Below, piece after piece: positions 1-7,142 of a stretch of 8,190 nt of DNA; position 1 is the stretch's first letter; each line of letters opens with the position of its first letter. The position numbers and the translations under genes were made by a program. The notes under the pieces were generated by a model. It was given only the letters and a program-made list of their open reading frames with translations, searched no databases and had not been told where the DNA came from. Source of the stretch: a virus (Duplodnaviria; Heunggongvirae; Uroviricota; Caudoviricetes); the IMG/VR virus record IMGVR_UViG_2609459797_000006; one strand, written 5' to 3'.

Positions 1-237
1 CTGTCACCCTTTGACGTGGTGATATGGATGACGGATGGCTGGCCGCTGTATGAATCCCGCCTGAAGGGAAAGCTGCACGTAATCAGCAAGCGATATACGC
101 AGCGAATTGAGCGGCATAACCTGAATCTGAGGCAGCACCTGGCACGGCTGGGACGGAAGTCGCTGTCGTTCTCAAAATCGGTGGAGCTGCATGACAAAGT
201 CATCGGGCATTATCTGAACATAAAACACTATCAATAA
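1..237 (+). CDS. insB: IS1 transposase InsB, C-terminal part (5' end lies outside the window)
   Basis: Open frame runs from nt 1 to the TAA at 235-237; the listed 73-aa ORF (16-237) is only the part after an internal Met. Sequence recognised as InsB. Confidence 0.88.
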
Positions 238-252
238 GTTGGAGTCATTACC
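1..252 (+). mobile_element. IS1 insertion sequence, right-hand ~250 bp (element continues left of the window)
   Basis: Frame 1 from nt 1 reads ...[78 protein letters not shown], which I recognise as the InsB C-terminus. The segment ends with ...CTATCAATAAGTTGGAGTCATTACC (228-252), the reverse complement of the IS1 terminal repeat GGTAATGACTCCAACTTATTGATAG. Recalled from memory, not searched. Confidence 0.88.
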
Positions 253-278
253 CACCTTTTAAAAGAAAAACCCTTTAA

Positions 279-380
279 AGGTGAACAGGTGAATACTTGG
301 TGAACACTTCAATAAAAAGTGTTCACCCCTTAACTATCTGTTAAATAGACGATTTTATCCACGGTGAATAGTGGTGAACA
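279..380. repeat. Iteron-like cluster: six copies of GGTGAAYA / TGTTCACC in both orientations, including a perfect 11-bp inverted repeat GGTGAACACTT-N7-AAGTGTTCACC (299-327); candidate crr/ori-type binding sites for the adjacent helicase/primase
   Basis: Seen directly: GGTGAACA 280-287, GGTGAATA 288-295, GGTGAACA 299-306, TGTTCACC 320-327, GGTGAATA 363-370, GGTGAACA 373-380. From memory, phage P4 ori and crr carry TGTTCACC type I iterons bound by the alpha protein. Confidence 0.6.
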
Positions 381-389
381 CTTTTCCCA

Positions 390-2536: not shown

Positions 2537-2727
2537 TTTGTCTCTCCCATGTGCAGCTCGGCGATTAATGCCCGGTGAATTTCCTGATTAAAATCACACG
2601 CAATAGAAATCAGATTCAGCAGCGTTTCTGAACATTCAGCAGAGGCTTTTTCCAGGATGGTTTCGTAAAGTGATGAAGCCAGCGCTGATTTATATTCGGC
2701 CTGCTCCAGACAGATTGGCTCACGCAT
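2533..2727 (-). CDS. Small hypothetical protein (64 aa)
   Basis: ATG at 2725-2727 preceded by a strong AGGAGG Shine-Dalgarno at ~6 nt; the start overlaps the stop of the upstream ORF (ATGCGTGA). No family recognised. Confidence 0.6.
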
Positions 2728-2911
2728 AGCGAACCTCCTGAACTGGTAGACGGCCAGCGCATACCATCACGCAGCCAGCCGGTGATTGCTCACGGGCTTC
2801 GCGCTCAGTGTTAGCTGTGATGTGAATGACGTTGCGACCGATGGCGCTCAGTGCAAGAAAACGCCAGATGTAGGACTTCCGCCCTTGCGGGTGTGTGATA
2901 TGATCTTTCAT
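2720..2911 (-). CDS. Small hypothetical protein (63 aa; [18 protein letters not shown]...), first gene of the minus-strand operon leading to the helicase/primase
   Basis: Chosen start is the ATG at 2909-2911 with GAGG 6-9 nt upstream. The listed 324-aa ORF (2720-3694) extends this frame upstream across the opposite-strand RHH gene and looks spurious there. An alternative ATG at 2996-2998 lacks a Shine-Dalgarno. Confidence 0.45.
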
Positions 2912-2999
2912 AGCTGCCTCGTTACTTTCGCTAACGGTGGTGGTTAGAGGCCCGGTTAGTGTTCCACCACTGCCGGGCTTTGCTTTACTAAAAGTCATG

Positions 3000-3057
3000 C
3001 AATGTAGTACATTGTCAACTCCACTACAGACTAGACCACAGGAGTTGACAATGTCAA
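3000..3057. promoter_or_regulatory. Divergent promoter/operator region with nested palindromes built on TTGACA/TGTCAA half-sites
   Basis: Seen directly: perfect 15-bp palindrome CAATGTAGTACATTG (3000-3014); perfect 13-bp inverted repeat CATTGTCAACTCC (3010-3022) / GGAGTTGACAATG (3041-3053) with an 18-bp spacer; palindrome TTGACA-A-TGTCAA (3045-3057) spanning the RHH start codon. Lies between divergent genes. Confidence 0.55.
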
Positions 3058-3224
3058 CAAGCGAAAATAAAGAGCGCCATGTTGTGCAGCTCAGACTCGA
3101 TAAAGAACTGTCAGAGCGGCTCGCTTTAGCGATGAAAGAAGACGGTGACGATAATAAGTCGGGATGGATAAAACGCCTTTTGCGCCGTGAACTTGATAAG
3201 CGCGGCATCGAGCCAAAAGGCTGA
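3051..3224 (+). CDS. Small ribbon-helix-helix (CopG/Arc/Mnt-like) DNA-binding protein, 57 aa; candidate repressor of the divergent replication operon
   Basis: ATG at 3051 preceded by AGGAG (3042-3046). Sequence [50 protein letters not shown] has a beta-strand-then-two-helices layout typical of RHH proteins. Fold inferred from sequence pattern only. Confidence 0.55.
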
Positions 3225-3543
3225 ACAGGGTTACTCCCCGTAATGCTGTGGACTGCCCCTCTTAAAAAGGGTCTGTTTTGCGCAACTATTAATGAGTTGT
3301 GCAGAGGCTCCCCTCTTAAAGAGGGTTGGTTATCTTCGCAGCTCTCTACGTTTTTCGTCGGAGCCTCTAAACCACGTTTAACGTTGTTTTGCCATGAACC
3401 CGAATACTGTTCGCCTTTGTCTCGATCTCCGTACGTTAAACGTACGCGGTTAATTTGTGCGTACGGATTTCGTCGGCTCAAGGTTTGACCACCAGCGGCA
3501 AGCCTGGTAATCTGGCGATGTTTCTGTAAAGCGGTATTGCACT

Positions 3544-3571
3544 GGCGGCCCGGCATGGCCGCCTTTGTTTT
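3544..3571 (+). terminator. Rho-independent terminator on the plus strand (GGCGGCC-CGGCAT-GGCCGCC followed by TTTGTTTT)
   Basis: Perfect 7-bp GC stem with 6-nt loop and T-rich tail, seen directly. Sits ~320 nt downstream of the RHH stop and just outside the 3' end of the convergent 230-aa gene. Confidence 0.55.
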
Positions 3572-3576
3572 GCCTG

Positions 3577-4269
3577 TCATACAATAGCCTCCACTTTCAG
3601 CCCGCCAGCGGTATACCCCTGAACCCGAACACCATCGACGCGATGACGCTTTTTCGTCAGAAAGCGGATGTGATCTGCGTAGACGTACTGCCATTTACCA
3701 TCGAGTGCCACACGTTTAAACCACGGATGAGGCTTAGATATGGTCTGGACAACTGGCGCGGAAGCCTTGCAGGGCGTGGGTTCTGCTGTGCATACCCCCT
3801 TATCGTTACCCGTTACTCTATACAGCCAGTAACTTGCCAGCTTCCCGGTCAATTTACGGGTGCGCACGGGGATATAACCCGCCTCACGCATCGCCTTACC
3901 AAAAGTGGCATCGTCCGGGTAATACTGGCGGCGTAGTTCCGTAGATACTGAAACGGCAAAGCTGCGTTTAGTCGGGTATTCCTGCCACTGGCCGACAAAT
4001 TCAAAAGGAAGACCATTAACCCTTCCTTTGGTCTTGTCCTTGCCGCTTATCCCTACATCATGGTCTGCCTCATGCACGGACACGCCGGAACGCAGCCACA
4101 CCAGCCCGTTACCGTTGTGGCGCAACCCCAGATCGGCAAGCGTAAATTCACCGCGATTAATGGGCGACCAGTCACCGGAAATAACCTGTTTACGGTTCGC
4201 TGAAATATCGTGCTGGCTGGCTACAGGGTGAGCGAATCCCTGCCCGTGGAGGGCATTAATCTTTTTCAT
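3577..4269 (-). CDS. Hypothetical protein, 230 aa, encoded immediately downstream of the AlpA-like gene
   Basis: Uninterrupted ORF with ATG start 20 nt downstream of the alpA-like stop. No catalytic motif recognised; family not assignable by eye. Confidence 0.65.
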
Positions 4270-4289: not shown

Positions 4290-4574
4290 TTAAGCAGATT
4301 TACGGCTGTATGGGTTATTGACGTTCTCTACTGCTGGCGGATTACGAACCCACCAGAGCACATCCGAAAGAAGCCAAGCACAGCTATTGCGGCCAAAGTG
4401 ACAGCGCGGAGGGAAGCGCCCCTGCTGCTCCATCTTCCAGCGGCTGGAACGGGAAAGACTGGTGATCTCGCTGCATTCATCTTCACGGATTCGGCGATCA
4501 AACTTAAAGCCGTACTCTTCTAAAAGGGTGCGGCGCTGTTCAGGATTTGGCGGGGTAAAGGTTATATTTTGCAT
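4290..4574 (-). CDS. AlpA/Vis-family phage regulatory protein (MerR-type HTH; transcriptional activator/excision regulator), 94 aa
   Basis: GGAGG Shine-Dalgarno 5-6 nt before the ATG at 4572-4574. Region ...SEITSLSRSSRWKMEQQGRFPPRCHFGRNSCAWLLSDVLWWVRN matches the AlpA pattern (LSRST-Y...G-FP....G...W...-V--W). The family includes E. coli CP4-57 AlpA and P4 Vis, recalled from memory. Confidence 0.75.
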   Translation of the reverse strand: MQNITFTPPNPEQRRTLLEEYGFKFDRRIREDECSEITSLSRSSRWKMEQQGRFPPRCHFGRNSCAWLLSDVLWWVRNPPAVENVNNPYSRKSA

Positions 4575-4623
4575 GCTGCCTCCACTGTTTCAATGTTATG
4601 CGAAGAGATTAGTGGATAAACGA

Positions 4624-4699
4624 CCAGAATTTCCATTGATTCTGGAATCCTTTAAAAGAACATGCAATTCCATTGAAAGATAGAAATTCCATCAAGATA
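4624..4699. promoter_or_regulatory. Repeat motifs upstream of the alpA-like gene: inverted repeat CCAGAAT-N8-ATTCTGG and three copies of TTCCATYRA
   Basis: Seen directly: CCAGAAT 4624-4630 / ATTCTGG 4639-4645; TTCCATTGA 4631-4639 and 4668-4676; TTCCATCAA 4691-4699. Lie 50-125 bp upstream of the alpA-like start. Function inferred. Confidence 0.35.
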
Positions 4700-4830
4700 A
4701 CGCTCCCCTGTTTAAAACAGTTTCCACAGTAATTTCAACGGCTGTCTCGAGAGAAAAAATCATGAATTTCAATAACTCGCCGAAGATCACCGTTCTTTAA
4801 CGATTTGATTCACCTTGGATTGTTCATAAC

Positions 4831-5030
4831 AAAGATGAACAATGATGAACGCTGATGAACAGTGATGAATAACCATGAACAAAGATGGAAAAAGTTAGCA
4901 AGTAATGACCTAGTAGGGACCGTGGATGGAGCTAGGTATTGTTAGGTGCTGTCGGGTGCCGTTACGTGTCATAACGTGTCATTACGTGTCGTTGAATGCT
5001 GTTGAATGCTGTTGAATGCTGTTGAATGTA
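4831..5030. repeat. Array of twenty phased 10-bp tandem repeat units in successive sub-families (ATGAAC-type x6, GGTGCT-type x3, TTACGTGTC x3, GTTGAATGCT x4), followed by very AT-rich DNA (5031-5164); candidate replication origin or protein-binding array
   Basis: Seen directly: 4831-4890 aaagatgaac/aatgatgaac/gctgatgaac/agtgatgaat/aaccatgaac/aaagatggaa; 4931-4960 gctaggtatt/gttaggtgct/gtcgggtgcc; 4961-4990 gttacgtgtc/ataacgtgtc/attacgtgtc; 4991-5030 gttgaatgct x3 then gttgaatgta. Strict 10-bp register throughout. No ORF present. Confidence 0.8.
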
Positions 5031-5164
5031 ACGGTAATACACATCAAATATAACAATTGAATCTCCTTGGCGATCATAGAATCGCCAAAAGCTCCAACAA
5101 ATATAATTAATTAGTATTTTCACATGAAATATAAATAATACCTACTAACACTGCAAAATAATAT

Positions 5165-5815
5165 TCATTCCGTATAATAAATCGAATTTAATGCCTTTCG
5201 AATTTTCTCATATATTGCTGATTTAGATAATCCAGTTTTAGATATACCTTCCTCATCAGCTAATTTATATAGTTCGTTTAAAATAGCCGAGATGCTTGGT
5301 TTTTTAGAGGTGCCAAACGAATGGCCTATCTTATGTGCTATAAGCTTGACCAGCATCCCCATTAATTTATCATTATATTCCTTTTCATCTTCTTTACGAT
5401 GCAAGCCGCGTTTGCTGCTTTTCAATGCAATTCCGACCTGTAAAAGCTCATCCCCTCCCATAGCATAAAGATGCTCTTTTCCTTTGTTTTGATTAGCAAT
5501 TATAGCCACCGCCGCAAGGCATCTGTCCTTTATGGGTTGTGGTGTAATATCTTCATCAATAAGAGGATATGCCAGAGCAAACATATAGTCTGCGGGATAG
5601 GCTGTTGAGTTTCCACCTCGAAATAATTTAGATGCTGATAACCATCTACTCAGTTGTCGATAGTATATATTGTAAGCTTCAACTTTCGCTTCAGGGATAT
5701 CAGCAGTTTTAACTGTCGGATCTACCCCACACATAAGTAGTGCAAGTTGTTTAATATTTAGCTCCGGGGCTTTGGCTTCTCGCTCGAAAATACCCAATTT
5801 TAGAAAACTAGTCAT
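5165..5815 (-). CDS. Hypothetical protein, 216 aa, AT-rich, translationally coupled to the integrase (TAATG overlap); possible C-terminal HTH
   Basis: ATG at 5813-5815 overlaps the integrase stop TAA (5815-5817). Base composition visibly more AT-rich than flanking genes. C-terminal segment ISKTGLSKSAIYEKIRKA resembles a helix-turn-helix. No known family recognised. Confidence 0.7.
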   Translation of the reverse strand: MTSFLKLGIFEREAKAPELNIKQLALLMCGVDPTVKTADIPEAKVEAYNIYYRQLSRWLSASKLFRGGNSTAYPADYMFALAYPLIDEDITPQPIKDRCLAAVAIIANQNKGKEHLYAMGGDELLQVGIALKSSKRGLHRKEDEKEYNDKLMGMLVKLIAHKIGHSFGTSKKPSISAILNELYKLADEEGISKTGLSKSAIYEKIRKALNSIYYTE

Positions 5816-7035
5816 TATTCAGCCTTATTCAACAAAACAATGTTAGTGAATCCACCTGATAAAATATCAAGTCTGTCATACCATTTATTCAACGCATCCA
5901 GTTTCTCAGGCAAGTACAGACTACGGTTATAAATCGCCATGACTCCCGGCATTGAGTGCCCCAGCAACTGTTCGACAACGTGTGGTGCTATACCCATATT
6001 ATTCATATGCGTTGCTAAAGTTCGTCTTAGATCGTGCAGTGTCCATGGTTCAGAATGCCCTAGCTTTTTATAAACGCCGCGGCCCCACTGACTTACCGCT
6101 TCACTGCCTTTAACCGACCCAAGCAAAAGGCCGGATCGTTTCGTTTCATCATGCAGTATTTCAATGAATTTGCGCATGGCATCCGGCACAGGTCTTACAA
6201 TCTTCTCGCCACCCTTGCTGTGCTCTTTGGGAACTGTCCAGACCCAGGCATCCATATCCCATTCACTCCACTCTGATAGCCTGGCCTCCTGCGTTCGGCA
6301 CCCAAACACTATTAAGATTGTCAGTAGCCTGGTGTAGTAAGGCATGAAGCAAGTGCCAGAGGAAATGGCAGCCCATAAATCGCCAGCCTCTTTATCGTTT
6401 AATACCCGGTCTTTTTTTGCCTGTTTTTTACCGACATCTGGAATTGTTAAATCTTCAAGCGCGGTACTCACAGCATAGCGACGAACCCGGCAGAATTTCA
6501 GGGCTTGTTTGCACATCTGGAACACATAACCTGCGGCGACTGGAGTTTTCTTTTTCATCCTGTCAAAGCAGTCAAGCCAGTATCGTGTTTCACAGTCAGC
6601 GAGCGCCATTTTCCCTATATAAGGATAAATGTGTTTTCGCAGCTCCGCTTTGTGCCGTTCAACATTCGCGCGGTTCTCTTCTGCATATTCGCGTATCCAG
6701 TATTCTATAGCTTCCTTAACAGTGACCGGTTTAAGGGTTTCCTGAGTAGTCAACGCCAACTGGTGCTTTGGATCTTTACCTGAGGCCAGCCACTGGCGGC
6801 ATTTATCACGCGATGAACGGGCTTCTTTGAGGCTCATATCCGGGTATCGTCCCAGAGTCAGACGATGCAGCTTCTGCCCGTCAAGTCGGTAAGTAAACAC
6901 CCAGCTAATACCACCAGCTTTAGTTACCTTGGCGCTCAGCCCGGCACCATCAGCATAGAACTCAATCTTACTGGCCGGGATACCATGTAATCCCTTTAAC
7001 TTCCTGTCGCTCAGTTTGTTAAGTTCCCCAGCCAT
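5815..7035 (-). CDS. int: P4-type tyrosine integrase (site-specific recombinase), 406 aa
   Basis: N-terminal segment (SDRKLKGL...KIEFYADGAGLSAKVTKAGGISWVFTYRLDGQKLHRLTLGRYPDMSLKEAR) matches the P4-integrase arm-binding domain pattern. C-terminal region carries HDLRRT (His-x-x-Arg) and GHSMPGVMAIYNRS (catalytic Tyr). ATG at 7033-7035. Confidence 0.9.
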   Translation of the reverse strand: MAGELNKLSDRKLKGLHGIPASKIEFYADGAGLSAKVTKAGGISWVFTYRLDGQKLHRLTLGRYPDMSLKEARSSRDKCRQWLASGKDPKHQLALTTQETLKPVTVKEAIEYWIREYAEENRANVERHKAELRKHIYPYIGKMALADCETRYWLDCFDRMKKKTPVAAGYVFQMCKQALKFCRVRRYAVSTALEDLTIPDVGKKQAKKDRVLNDKEAGDLWAAISSGTCFMPYYTRLLTILIVFGCRTQEARLSEWSEWDMDAWVWTVPKEHSKGGEKIVRPVPDAMRKFIEILHDETKRSGLLLGSVKGSEAVSQWGRGVYKKLGHSEPWTLHDLRRTLATHMNNMGIAPHVVEQLLGHSMPGVMAIYNRSLYLPEKLDALNKWYDRLDILSGGFTNIVLLNKAE

Positions 7036-7053
7036 AGACCACCCAGCCCAAAG

Positions 7054-7142
7054 TGTTTATACAAATGTTTATACAGAATTGCTTGCATAATAGCATAAAC
7101 AAAGAAAAACACTGGAACAATATACAGGCATGAATTTATACA
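7054..7142. promoter_or_regulatory. Integrase upstream region with direct repeats TGTTTATACA (7054-7063, 7066-7075) plus TATACAG (7121-7127) and TTTATACA (7135-7142); candidate int promoter elements and/or arm-type Int-binding sites
   Basis: Repeats seen directly. On the minus strand they read TGTATAAAC, resembling extended -10 elements 20-40 bp upstream of the int start. Their position between int and the element end is where P4-type arm sites are expected. Function inferred. Confidence 0.4.

Follow-up and report, generated by a model that had tools for sequence, protein, structure and literature searches.

Gene orf216 and a helically phased repeat tract behind it as a candidate switch-control module at the int-alpA junction of a capsid-forming PICI

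Analysis of the viral record IMGVR_UViG_2609459797_000006 (a stretch of 8,190 bp, in the following called the window) revealed a gene, orf216, whose homologues are followed in nearly every locus by a tract of short repeats that keep the period of the DNA helix. This association of gene and tract was the strongest result of our analysis, and the tract is part of the orf216 cassette. Since the two nearly always occur together and just upstream of alpA (exceptions for the tract were loci L035 and L031), we consider them a good candidate for a switch-control module. The island type as such, the variable int-proximal slot in general terms, and a published model island in which orf216 passed without remark were already known. 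What appears to be new is an orphan family tied to the int-alpA junction, a cassette that includes the alpA control region, and the conservation of helical phasing and not of sequence. The features of the window are compiled in Table 1.

Table 1. Coordinates and main properties of the features in the window
Feature	Position	Strand	Description
IS1 end	1..252		C-terminus of InsB and terminal inverted repeat; abuts the iteron cluster
Iteron cluster	253..389		GGTGAACA / TGTTCACC in both orientations with AT-rich spacers, directly 3' of the primase gene; truncated by IS1
324-aa ORF	2720..3694	(-)	Likely not a gene
RHH-like gene	2937..3224	(+)	Small ORF divergent from the main operon; candidate regulator
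230-aa gene (orf230)	3577..4269	(-)	Just 3' of alpA
alpA	4290..4574	(-)	Activator gene of the island, first gene 3' of the cassette; Phage_AlpA, E=5e-10
Swappable cassette	4601..5827		orf216 and 564 bp of non-coding DNA
RATGGAA direct repeats	4628..4696	(-)	Three copies, TTGATGGAAT / TCAATGGAA, at -66, -103 and -122 from the alpA start
Repeat tract	4817..5044		228 bp, about 21 consecutive, helically phased 10-bp units of drifting sequence
Hairpin	5059..5094	(-)	dG -13 kcal/mol, 71-106 nt past the orf216 stop, no clean T-run; possibly a weak terminator
orf216	5165..5815	(-)	216 aa, pI 9.0 (mildly basic), predicted all-alpha, PHROG 30524
int	5815..7035	(-)	Tyrosine integrase, 406 aa; Arm-DNA-bind_3 and Phage_integrase domains
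Tandem repeat	7049..7075		12-13-bp unit, CAAAGTGTTTATA, 2.2 copies; possible arm-type integrase sites

Based on gene content and similarity, the window can be classified as the int-to-primase part of a capsid-forming PICI (cf-PICI) of the EcCIGN02175/KpCIDSM30104 kind, a type of island that has been studied under these names (bioRxiv 10.1101/2025.02.11.637232). It harbors int, orf216, alpA, the 230-aa gene, small genes of a DUF4222 and Icd-like region, and a D5/P4-alpha-like primase gene (589 aa), adjoins the chromosomal gene yhdJ, and is cut by IS1. The first-pass annotation had suspected a satellite or PICI setting, and an identity of 97-99% to KpCIDSM30104 and vB_KppS-Ant bears this out. 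At 97-100% identity, the genes of the window were also found in E. coli CU37RT-2, K. pneumoniae ATCC 13883, Enterobacter hormaechei, and vB_KppS-Ant, the latter being a 16.5-kb record induced from K. pneumoniae DSM 30104. We took as capsid-forming PICIs islands of 10-18 kb with int, alpA, a replication module, and their own capsid-to-TerL set but no tail genes; the window was assigned via its 97-99% identical relatives (including L001 and L002), which go on with genes for capsid, protease, portal, connector, HNH, TerS, and TerL, while the window copy is cut by IS1 after the primase gene.

In all islands examined, GGTGAACA / TGTTCACC iterons are clustered 3' of the primase gene, and we take the GGTGAACA sequence to be of the P4 type. 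The position of the cluster corresponds to the arrangement of a P4-type origin. In intact relatives the cluster is longer (L024, 5398-5640), so that IS1 has cut the P4-type origin, and the island copy in the window is probably crippled. The repeat tract between orf216 and alpA was also considered as replication origin and rejected, since islands with a 99% identical primase do without the tract, yet keep the iterons 3' of the primase gene.

The start of orf216 on the integrase stop codon, as given by the first-pass annotation, was borne out: the TAA of int and the ATG of orf216 (5815-5813) have one base in common, resulting in TAATG on the coding strand, and an AAGG is located 9 nt 5' of the ATG. 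Judging by this overlap, orf216 would be translationally coupled to int and co-transcribed with it. Several lines of evidence showed that orf216 is a real and constrained coding gene, namely a full-length profile match of residues 1-216 to positions 4-220 of 220 of PHROG 30524 (E=6e-121), homologues amounting to 23 clusters (90% identity) and to 46 representatives (50% identity) in a set of 1.8 billion proteins, 55 invariant columns in an alignment of 22 homologues with 51-76% identity, and 5-7 synonymous versus 0-1 non-synonymous codon differences among near-identical copies. The reading frame, which might have turned out to be broken in related elements, is thus kept as coding. In complete E. 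coli genomes, orf216 DNA was detected in only 7 of 5426, in two of which IS1 interrupts the gene; truncated versions were found in L010 and H7, and many working PICIs, e.g., EcCIMP1, lack it, so that orf216 is dispensable.

With respect to base composition, orf216 had a lower GC content (0.381) than int (0.477) and than alpA, orf230, and the primase gene (0.52-0.54; about 52% for the island outside orf216 and int), and a GC3 of 0.295 versus 0.48-0.57. The AT-richness seen at first reading is therefore real, while its interpretation as a sign of separate acquisition needs correction: homologues of orf216 were AT-richer than their neighbour genes in nearly every locus examined, so that AT-richness is a trait of the whole family in every host and not just a mark of recent acquisition.

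Comparison with E. coli sister islands located at the same fis-yhdJ site delimited the exchangeable unit. Similarity to these islands ends at 4591-4600, about 25 nt before the ATG of alpA, and sets in again on the int side at 5828-5875; the unit therefore consists of orf216 plus the non-coding DNA that follows. Apart from roughly the last 25 nt, the cassette contains the entire DNA 5' of alpA, and hence would contain any promoter or operator of alpA. Though the backbones are nearly identical (int 96-99% and alpA about 86-93% at the DNA level, primase 98.8-99.3% at the protein level), the sister islands harbor other genes in place of orf216, encoding either a DUF6387 protein (262-267 aa), a 309-aa protein (PHROG 7144), or a 272-aa protein. 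Hence, four unrelated occupants of the slot were found within one lineage. The protein most often encoded in the int-alpA slot of the cf-PICI lineage was DUF6387 (L020, L023, L032, and L033), and its gene overlaps int by 4 nt in three of these four loci. Neither BLASTP nor the family HMM revealed homology among the occupants, apart from 40 N-terminal residues common to the 309-aa and 272-aa proteins, and none of the alternative occupants matched PADLOC-DB 2.0. The shared N-terminus of these two proteins is HTH-like (ERASRLLGCEISDL). In the sister cassettes, no more than about 100-140 bp separate the respective gene from alpA.

In the cf-PICI lineage, the slot was filled in 13 of 13 islands examined, while in other lineages it is empty, as in EcCIMP1, where no gene separates int from alpA. 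The first-pass annotation had proposed to compare this slot across related elements and had supposed that it holds variable cargo. The variability was confirmed by the replacement of orf216 with DUF6387, 309-aa, or 272-aa genes; the idea of cargo was less well matched by the distribution of the orf216 family, which is not free-floating but was found at the int-alpA junction only in the contexts examined.

This position is conserved in most contexts examined. Nine species-representative genomes showed the order int, homologue, 300-700 bp, alpA, although in three of them the integrase was only 25% identical to that of the window. Altogether, the same order was found in 13 loci with at least three types of integrase and with primases of the P4-alpha/D5-like, Toprim/DUF927, and DUF3987 types. 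Even distant homologues (25-43% identity) keep it beside Toprim/DUF927, DUF3987, or full P4-alpha-type primases, one of these islands carrying an Ogr/Delta gene. In at least 12 loci, the start of the homologue overlaps int or lies up to about 25 nt 3' of it. Deviations were seen at L035, which has no upstream integrase, at L031, with extra genes before alpA, at one further locus with int but without alpA, and at L018, where a remote relative of the C-terminal part only is located elsewhere. A search of 50,697 phage records with orf216 gave a single match, which was the satellite itself. In most contexts examined, the family thus appears to be confined to the int-alpA junction of satellites, whatever the type of integrase or primase. 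One homologue was detected in a 12,152-bp circular E. coli record deposited as a plasmid (L030, NZ_CP148430.1), which is an EcCIMP1-like PICI; besides int and the orf216 homologue, it harbors AntA, DUF927 primase, and PerC genes and is presumably an excised satellite.

The non-coding part of the cassette is dominated by the repeat tract, which starts 121 nt and ends 348 nt past the orf216 stop. On the transcribed strand it consists of four units of CATTCAACAG, three of CACGTAATGA, single variants, and finally five to six units of the GTTCATC type. The first-pass annotation had seen a repeat array at 4831-5030 and suggested orf216 as its regulator, and a link between the two was supported by the comparison of loci. 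Intergenic regions behind 16 full-length homologues displayed lag-10 autocorrelation with z values of 2.1-6.8, and period-10 repeats were 45-fold more frequent behind homologues (3.73/kb) than in the remaining 338 kb of the 345 kb of loci (0.083/kb), several of the matches elsewhere being the same region in L001, L002, and L013. EcCIMP1 and the sister cassettes were searched for such a tract, and none was found. The association of gene and tract is not universal; among the homologue loci, the exceptions were L035 (z=0.8) and L031, the latter being rearranged. Because Int, AlpA, the primase, and the RHH-like gene all occur in tract-free sister islands, Orf216 was the only protein co-varying with the tract; for the same reason, binding of the tract by Int, AlpA, or the RHH-like protein was rejected.

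What is conserved in the tracts is the period of 10 bp. Adjacent units are more alike than distant ones, the sequence is specific for each locus, and copy numbers vary even among islands with more than 99% identity (e.g., 3.8 versus 5.8). The phased 5-mers recurring most often over 15 non-redundant loci were TTCAT (6), GTTTC (5), TTTCA (4), and GTTCA (3), which hints weakly at a common core of the units across loci.

Other explanations for the DNA behind orf216 were also checked. A Rho-utilisation site was rejected because the bias of C over G is not conserved, the C/G ratio being about 2 in the group of the window, L004, and L006, but at most 1.0 in L012, L014, and L015. The hairpin between orf216 and the tract is missing in most homologous loci, so that a conserved intrinsic terminator after orf216 was rejected as well. 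A search of the non-coding region of the cassette against Rfam gave no match, and a structured RNA was dismissed, since the only match in the cassette (2dG-II, 5578-5631) scored far under the threshold and fell within the coding sequence of orf216, on the strand opposite to it. Closer to alpA, the RATGGAA repeats might represent operator, AlpA, or activator sites of a cassette-borne alpA promoter region, for which they are candidates; in the distant island L026, four copies of the motif were found at nearly unchanged distances, and none in the other loci.

Searches with the deduced protein against Pfam, NCBIfam, and PADLOC resulted in no family above threshold (for PADLOC-DB 2.0, 0 defence families at E<=0.1), and a HMMER scan covering all 1.8 billion representatives as well as a second profile search led to unnamed proteins only. 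Its structure model found no matching fold in PDB or BFVD, and a literature search by protein accession gave no match. Orf216 hence represents a small orphan family outside all named ones, in agreement with the first-pass annotation, which had recognised no family; the profile and structure searches proposed there placed it in no well-characterised housekeeping or structural family.

An AlphaFold2 model based on 22 sequences was all-alpha with a mean pLDDT of 83, displaying an N-terminal helical domain (residues ~1-128) a long helix whose middle part (~129-150), a conserved basic linker with the motif KRGxHRKxDE, is of low confidence, and a C-terminal part of three helices. In the latter, helices 175-189 and 198-213 flank G195, the only invariant residue in a wide alignment of the family. 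The C-terminal motif GLSKSxIYxKI is HTH-like, aligns with the recognition-helix region of AlpA, and belongs to the most widely conserved segment of the family. The possible C-terminal HTH of the first-pass annotation was thus recovered as a motif resembling AlpA, while profile comparison did not extend it to a domain: Phage_AlpA (PF05930) gave E=0.038-0.089 and 13.1-14.3 bits against a cut-off of 21, and hhalign against an alignment of 12 AlpA sequences 13.8% probability over 17 columns. The resemblance to an AlpA/MerR-type HTH is therefore one of motif level only, with weak support. Based on this motif, the mildly basic character of the family (pI > 8 in 21 of 27 members), and the basic C-terminal half of Orf216 (pI 9.5), DNA binding is plausible but not established. 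A metzincin- or matrixin-like metallopeptidase was rejected, since HKIGH departs from HExxHxxGxxH with K in place of the catalytic Glu. Among 22 homologues, the first His is replaced by K, N, or Q in 20 and the second by G, N, or F in about nine; the matches to Pfam matrixin (E=0.03, below cut-off) and archaemetzincin are weak and rest on HKIGH.

Taken together, we tentatively favor, with less than even confidence, that alpA is controlled by Orf216 as a DNA-binding protein that is produced along with Int and assembles on the tract. According to this proposal, orf216 and the non-coding DNA behind it would form one two-part module between int and alpA. Orf216, produced together with the integrase, would bind DNA via its basic C-terminal half, i.e., the KRGxHRK linker and the HTH-like end, and might assemble on one face of the 10-bp tract, a unit for each turn of the helix, just upstream of the alpA promoter region. 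Such a nucleoprotein array would silence alpA and hence also excision, replication, and packaging, either by repression of the alpA promoter or by a block of read-through from int and orf216. The outcome would be a function for quiescence and establishment expressed alongside Int, of which the other cassettes may be other versions; as a cassette supplies the whole upstream region of alpA, its exchange would also exchange the mode of alpA control. This proposal fits the constant location of orf216, the joint inheritance of gene and tract, the replaced alpA upstream region, and the coupling to int, and also the published statement that for Gram-negative PICIs neither a global repressor nor the helper cue acting on alpA is known (PMC6092414). 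Against it speak the sub-threshold HTH signal and the lack of significant homology or fold matches to DNA-binding proteins, as well as the variation of repeat units between loci and within a tract, which argues against a single specific operator. Further points against it are the dispensability of orf216, its orientation, which is the same as that of alpA and not divergent as for classic repressor genes, the presence of the RHH-like gene as another possible regulator, and the fact that the published work on KpCIDSM30104 does not mention orf216 (bioRxiv 10.1101/2025.02.11.637232).

The main rival to alpA control by Orf216 is that the gene is variable cargo with an anti-phage, helper-interference, or superinfection-exclusion function, the tract being its own 3' regulatory or insulating DNA without a role for alpA. 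We regard this as possible, though somewhat doubtful. The four unrelated occupants of the slot in one lineage are what would be expected of cargo, accessory genes located between int and the regulation module have been noted in PICIs (PMC10085698), and orf216 is AT-rich, rare, and dispensable. However, there was no match to PADLOC, and the family occurs in the int-alpA slot only (in the contexts examined), whereas defence genes are usually also found in prophages, plasmids, and defence islands. In addition, the slot is filled in every island of the cf-PICI lineage examined, even if other lineages leave it empty, and it is not obvious what a conserved phased tract would do for a defence system consisting of a single gene.

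Two further readings are less likely than either control of alpA or cargo. In one of them, which we hold to be quite improbable, Orf216 would be a protein of the centromere-binding type and the tract a centromere-like site, both maintaining or positioning the excised satellite circle. A gene followed by short direct repeats at helical-turn spacing indeed recalls plasmid partition sites, and one homologue comes from the 12.1-kb circular PICI deposited as a plasmid. However, comparison with plasmid centromere-binding proteins of the ParR and pSK1 Par type revealed no homology or fold match, a partner NTPase is not present, a stable plasmid state is not known as a requirement of PICIs, and the sister islands manage without the module. 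According to the other reading, which appears extremely improbable, the P4-alpha-like primase would use the tract as a second origin or for copy control by titration, and orf216 would be an unrelated passenger. This reading draws on the alpA-proximal GTTCATC units, which differ by one mismatch from the origin iteron GTTCACC 3' of the primase gene, but the sister islands with 98.8-99.3% identical primases have the iterons and no tract, tracts also follow homologues in islands with unrelated primases, and the units of the array in L015 are unrelated to the repeats 3' of the L015 primase gene.

Among known systems, the Stl/Rpr master repressors of Gram-positive PICIs (SaPIs) share with orf216 an int-proximal position, high divergence between otherwise similar islands, and a location beside the control region of the lytic operon, a likeness that makes them the proposed functional analogue of orf216 with regard to quiescence and helper specificity. 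While both are thus int-proximal and variable, Stl carries a recognisable HTH at its N-terminus, is essential for quiescence, and is divergent in transcription to the operon under its repression; orf216, in contrast, is co-directional with alpA, shows no significant HTH match, is optional, and is accompanied by a long phased tract instead of a few operators. A more far-reaching idea, which we consider rather unlikely, is that the int-alpA slot houses the missing module for quiescence and helper specificity, with an Orf216 filament silencing alpA until a helper product releases it, and with DUF6387, PHROG 7144, and other proteins as interchangeable sensors, i.e., a Gram-negative counterpart of the Stl repertoire.

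Several small plasmid proteins coat arrays of helically phased direct repeats, as in ParR-parC of R1, pSK1 Par, and StbA-stbDR of R388. With these systems orf216 has in common a small gene of DNA-binding type beside 10-20 direct repeats that recur about once per turn of the helix. DUF6387 (PF19924) in sister cf-PICIs resembles orf216 in occupying exactly the same slot, co-directional with int and overlapping it, but its sequence is unrelated (hmmsearch E>0.3), and only about 100 bp without any tract follow behind. Similarities also exist to accessory-gene hotspots of satellites, such as that between int and the regulation module in PICIs (PMC10085698) and, as referred to in PMC10803314 with citation of Rousset 2022, the int-psu hotspot of P4-like satellites. 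Like the orf216 slot, they are variable, lie beside the integrase, and hold unrelated genes in near-identical backbones. The orf216 slot differs from them in that no known defence family is present, the occupant is found only there in the contexts examined, and it brings along DNA that replaces the upstream region of alpA.

Both the activation of alpA by helpers and the existence of a repressor in Gram-negative PICIs have been described as unresolved (PMC6092414), and the cassette bears on both, since it comprises the complete alpA upstream region together with a protein and its own phased tract in a swappable form. For this type of island a genetic system exists (KpCIDSM30104 / EcCIGN02175), so that the question is directly testable. 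Should orf216 be cargo instead, it would be a new single-gene candidate for phage interference borne by a satellite. Either way, the protein family has no fold match in PDB or BFVD, and a tract that conserves its period and not its sequence is likewise an unusual DNA element.

Some further observations were made on other parts of the window and its relatives. The small plus-strand ORF at 2937-3224 encodes in its 57-aa version an RHH-like protein (RHH_1, E=0.05, sub-threshold) and represents a further candidate for regulation of the island; its place is taken by YlcI/YnfO or HicB-type genes in sister islands. The 324-aa ORF on the opposite strand is a CDS in LR881103 but was not called by PGAP in relatives, and its Arg/Ser/Gly-rich product had no homologues in family searches. 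Leaving this ORF aside, about 850 bp (2728-3576) are without clear function except for the small plus-strand ORF. The 230-aa gene had no match in Pfam, PHROG, PADLOC, or NCBIfam and is 94% identical between relatives whose neighbour genes are 97-100% identical. At this position, which has been listed as a variable region of cf-PICIs (bioRxiv 10.1101/2025.02.11.637232), sister islands carry antirepressor-type genes (AntA/AntB, KilAC, or ORF6N). Regarding vB_KppS-Ant (L002, LR881103), the source paper speaks of a filamentous ssDNA phage (PMC8006926), while the record encodes a major capsid protein, a portal, and a terminase and represents the cf-PICI of K. pneumoniae DSM 30104. Finally, the tandem repeat CAAAGTGTTTATA lies between int and yhdJ, in the presumed attL and int promoter region.
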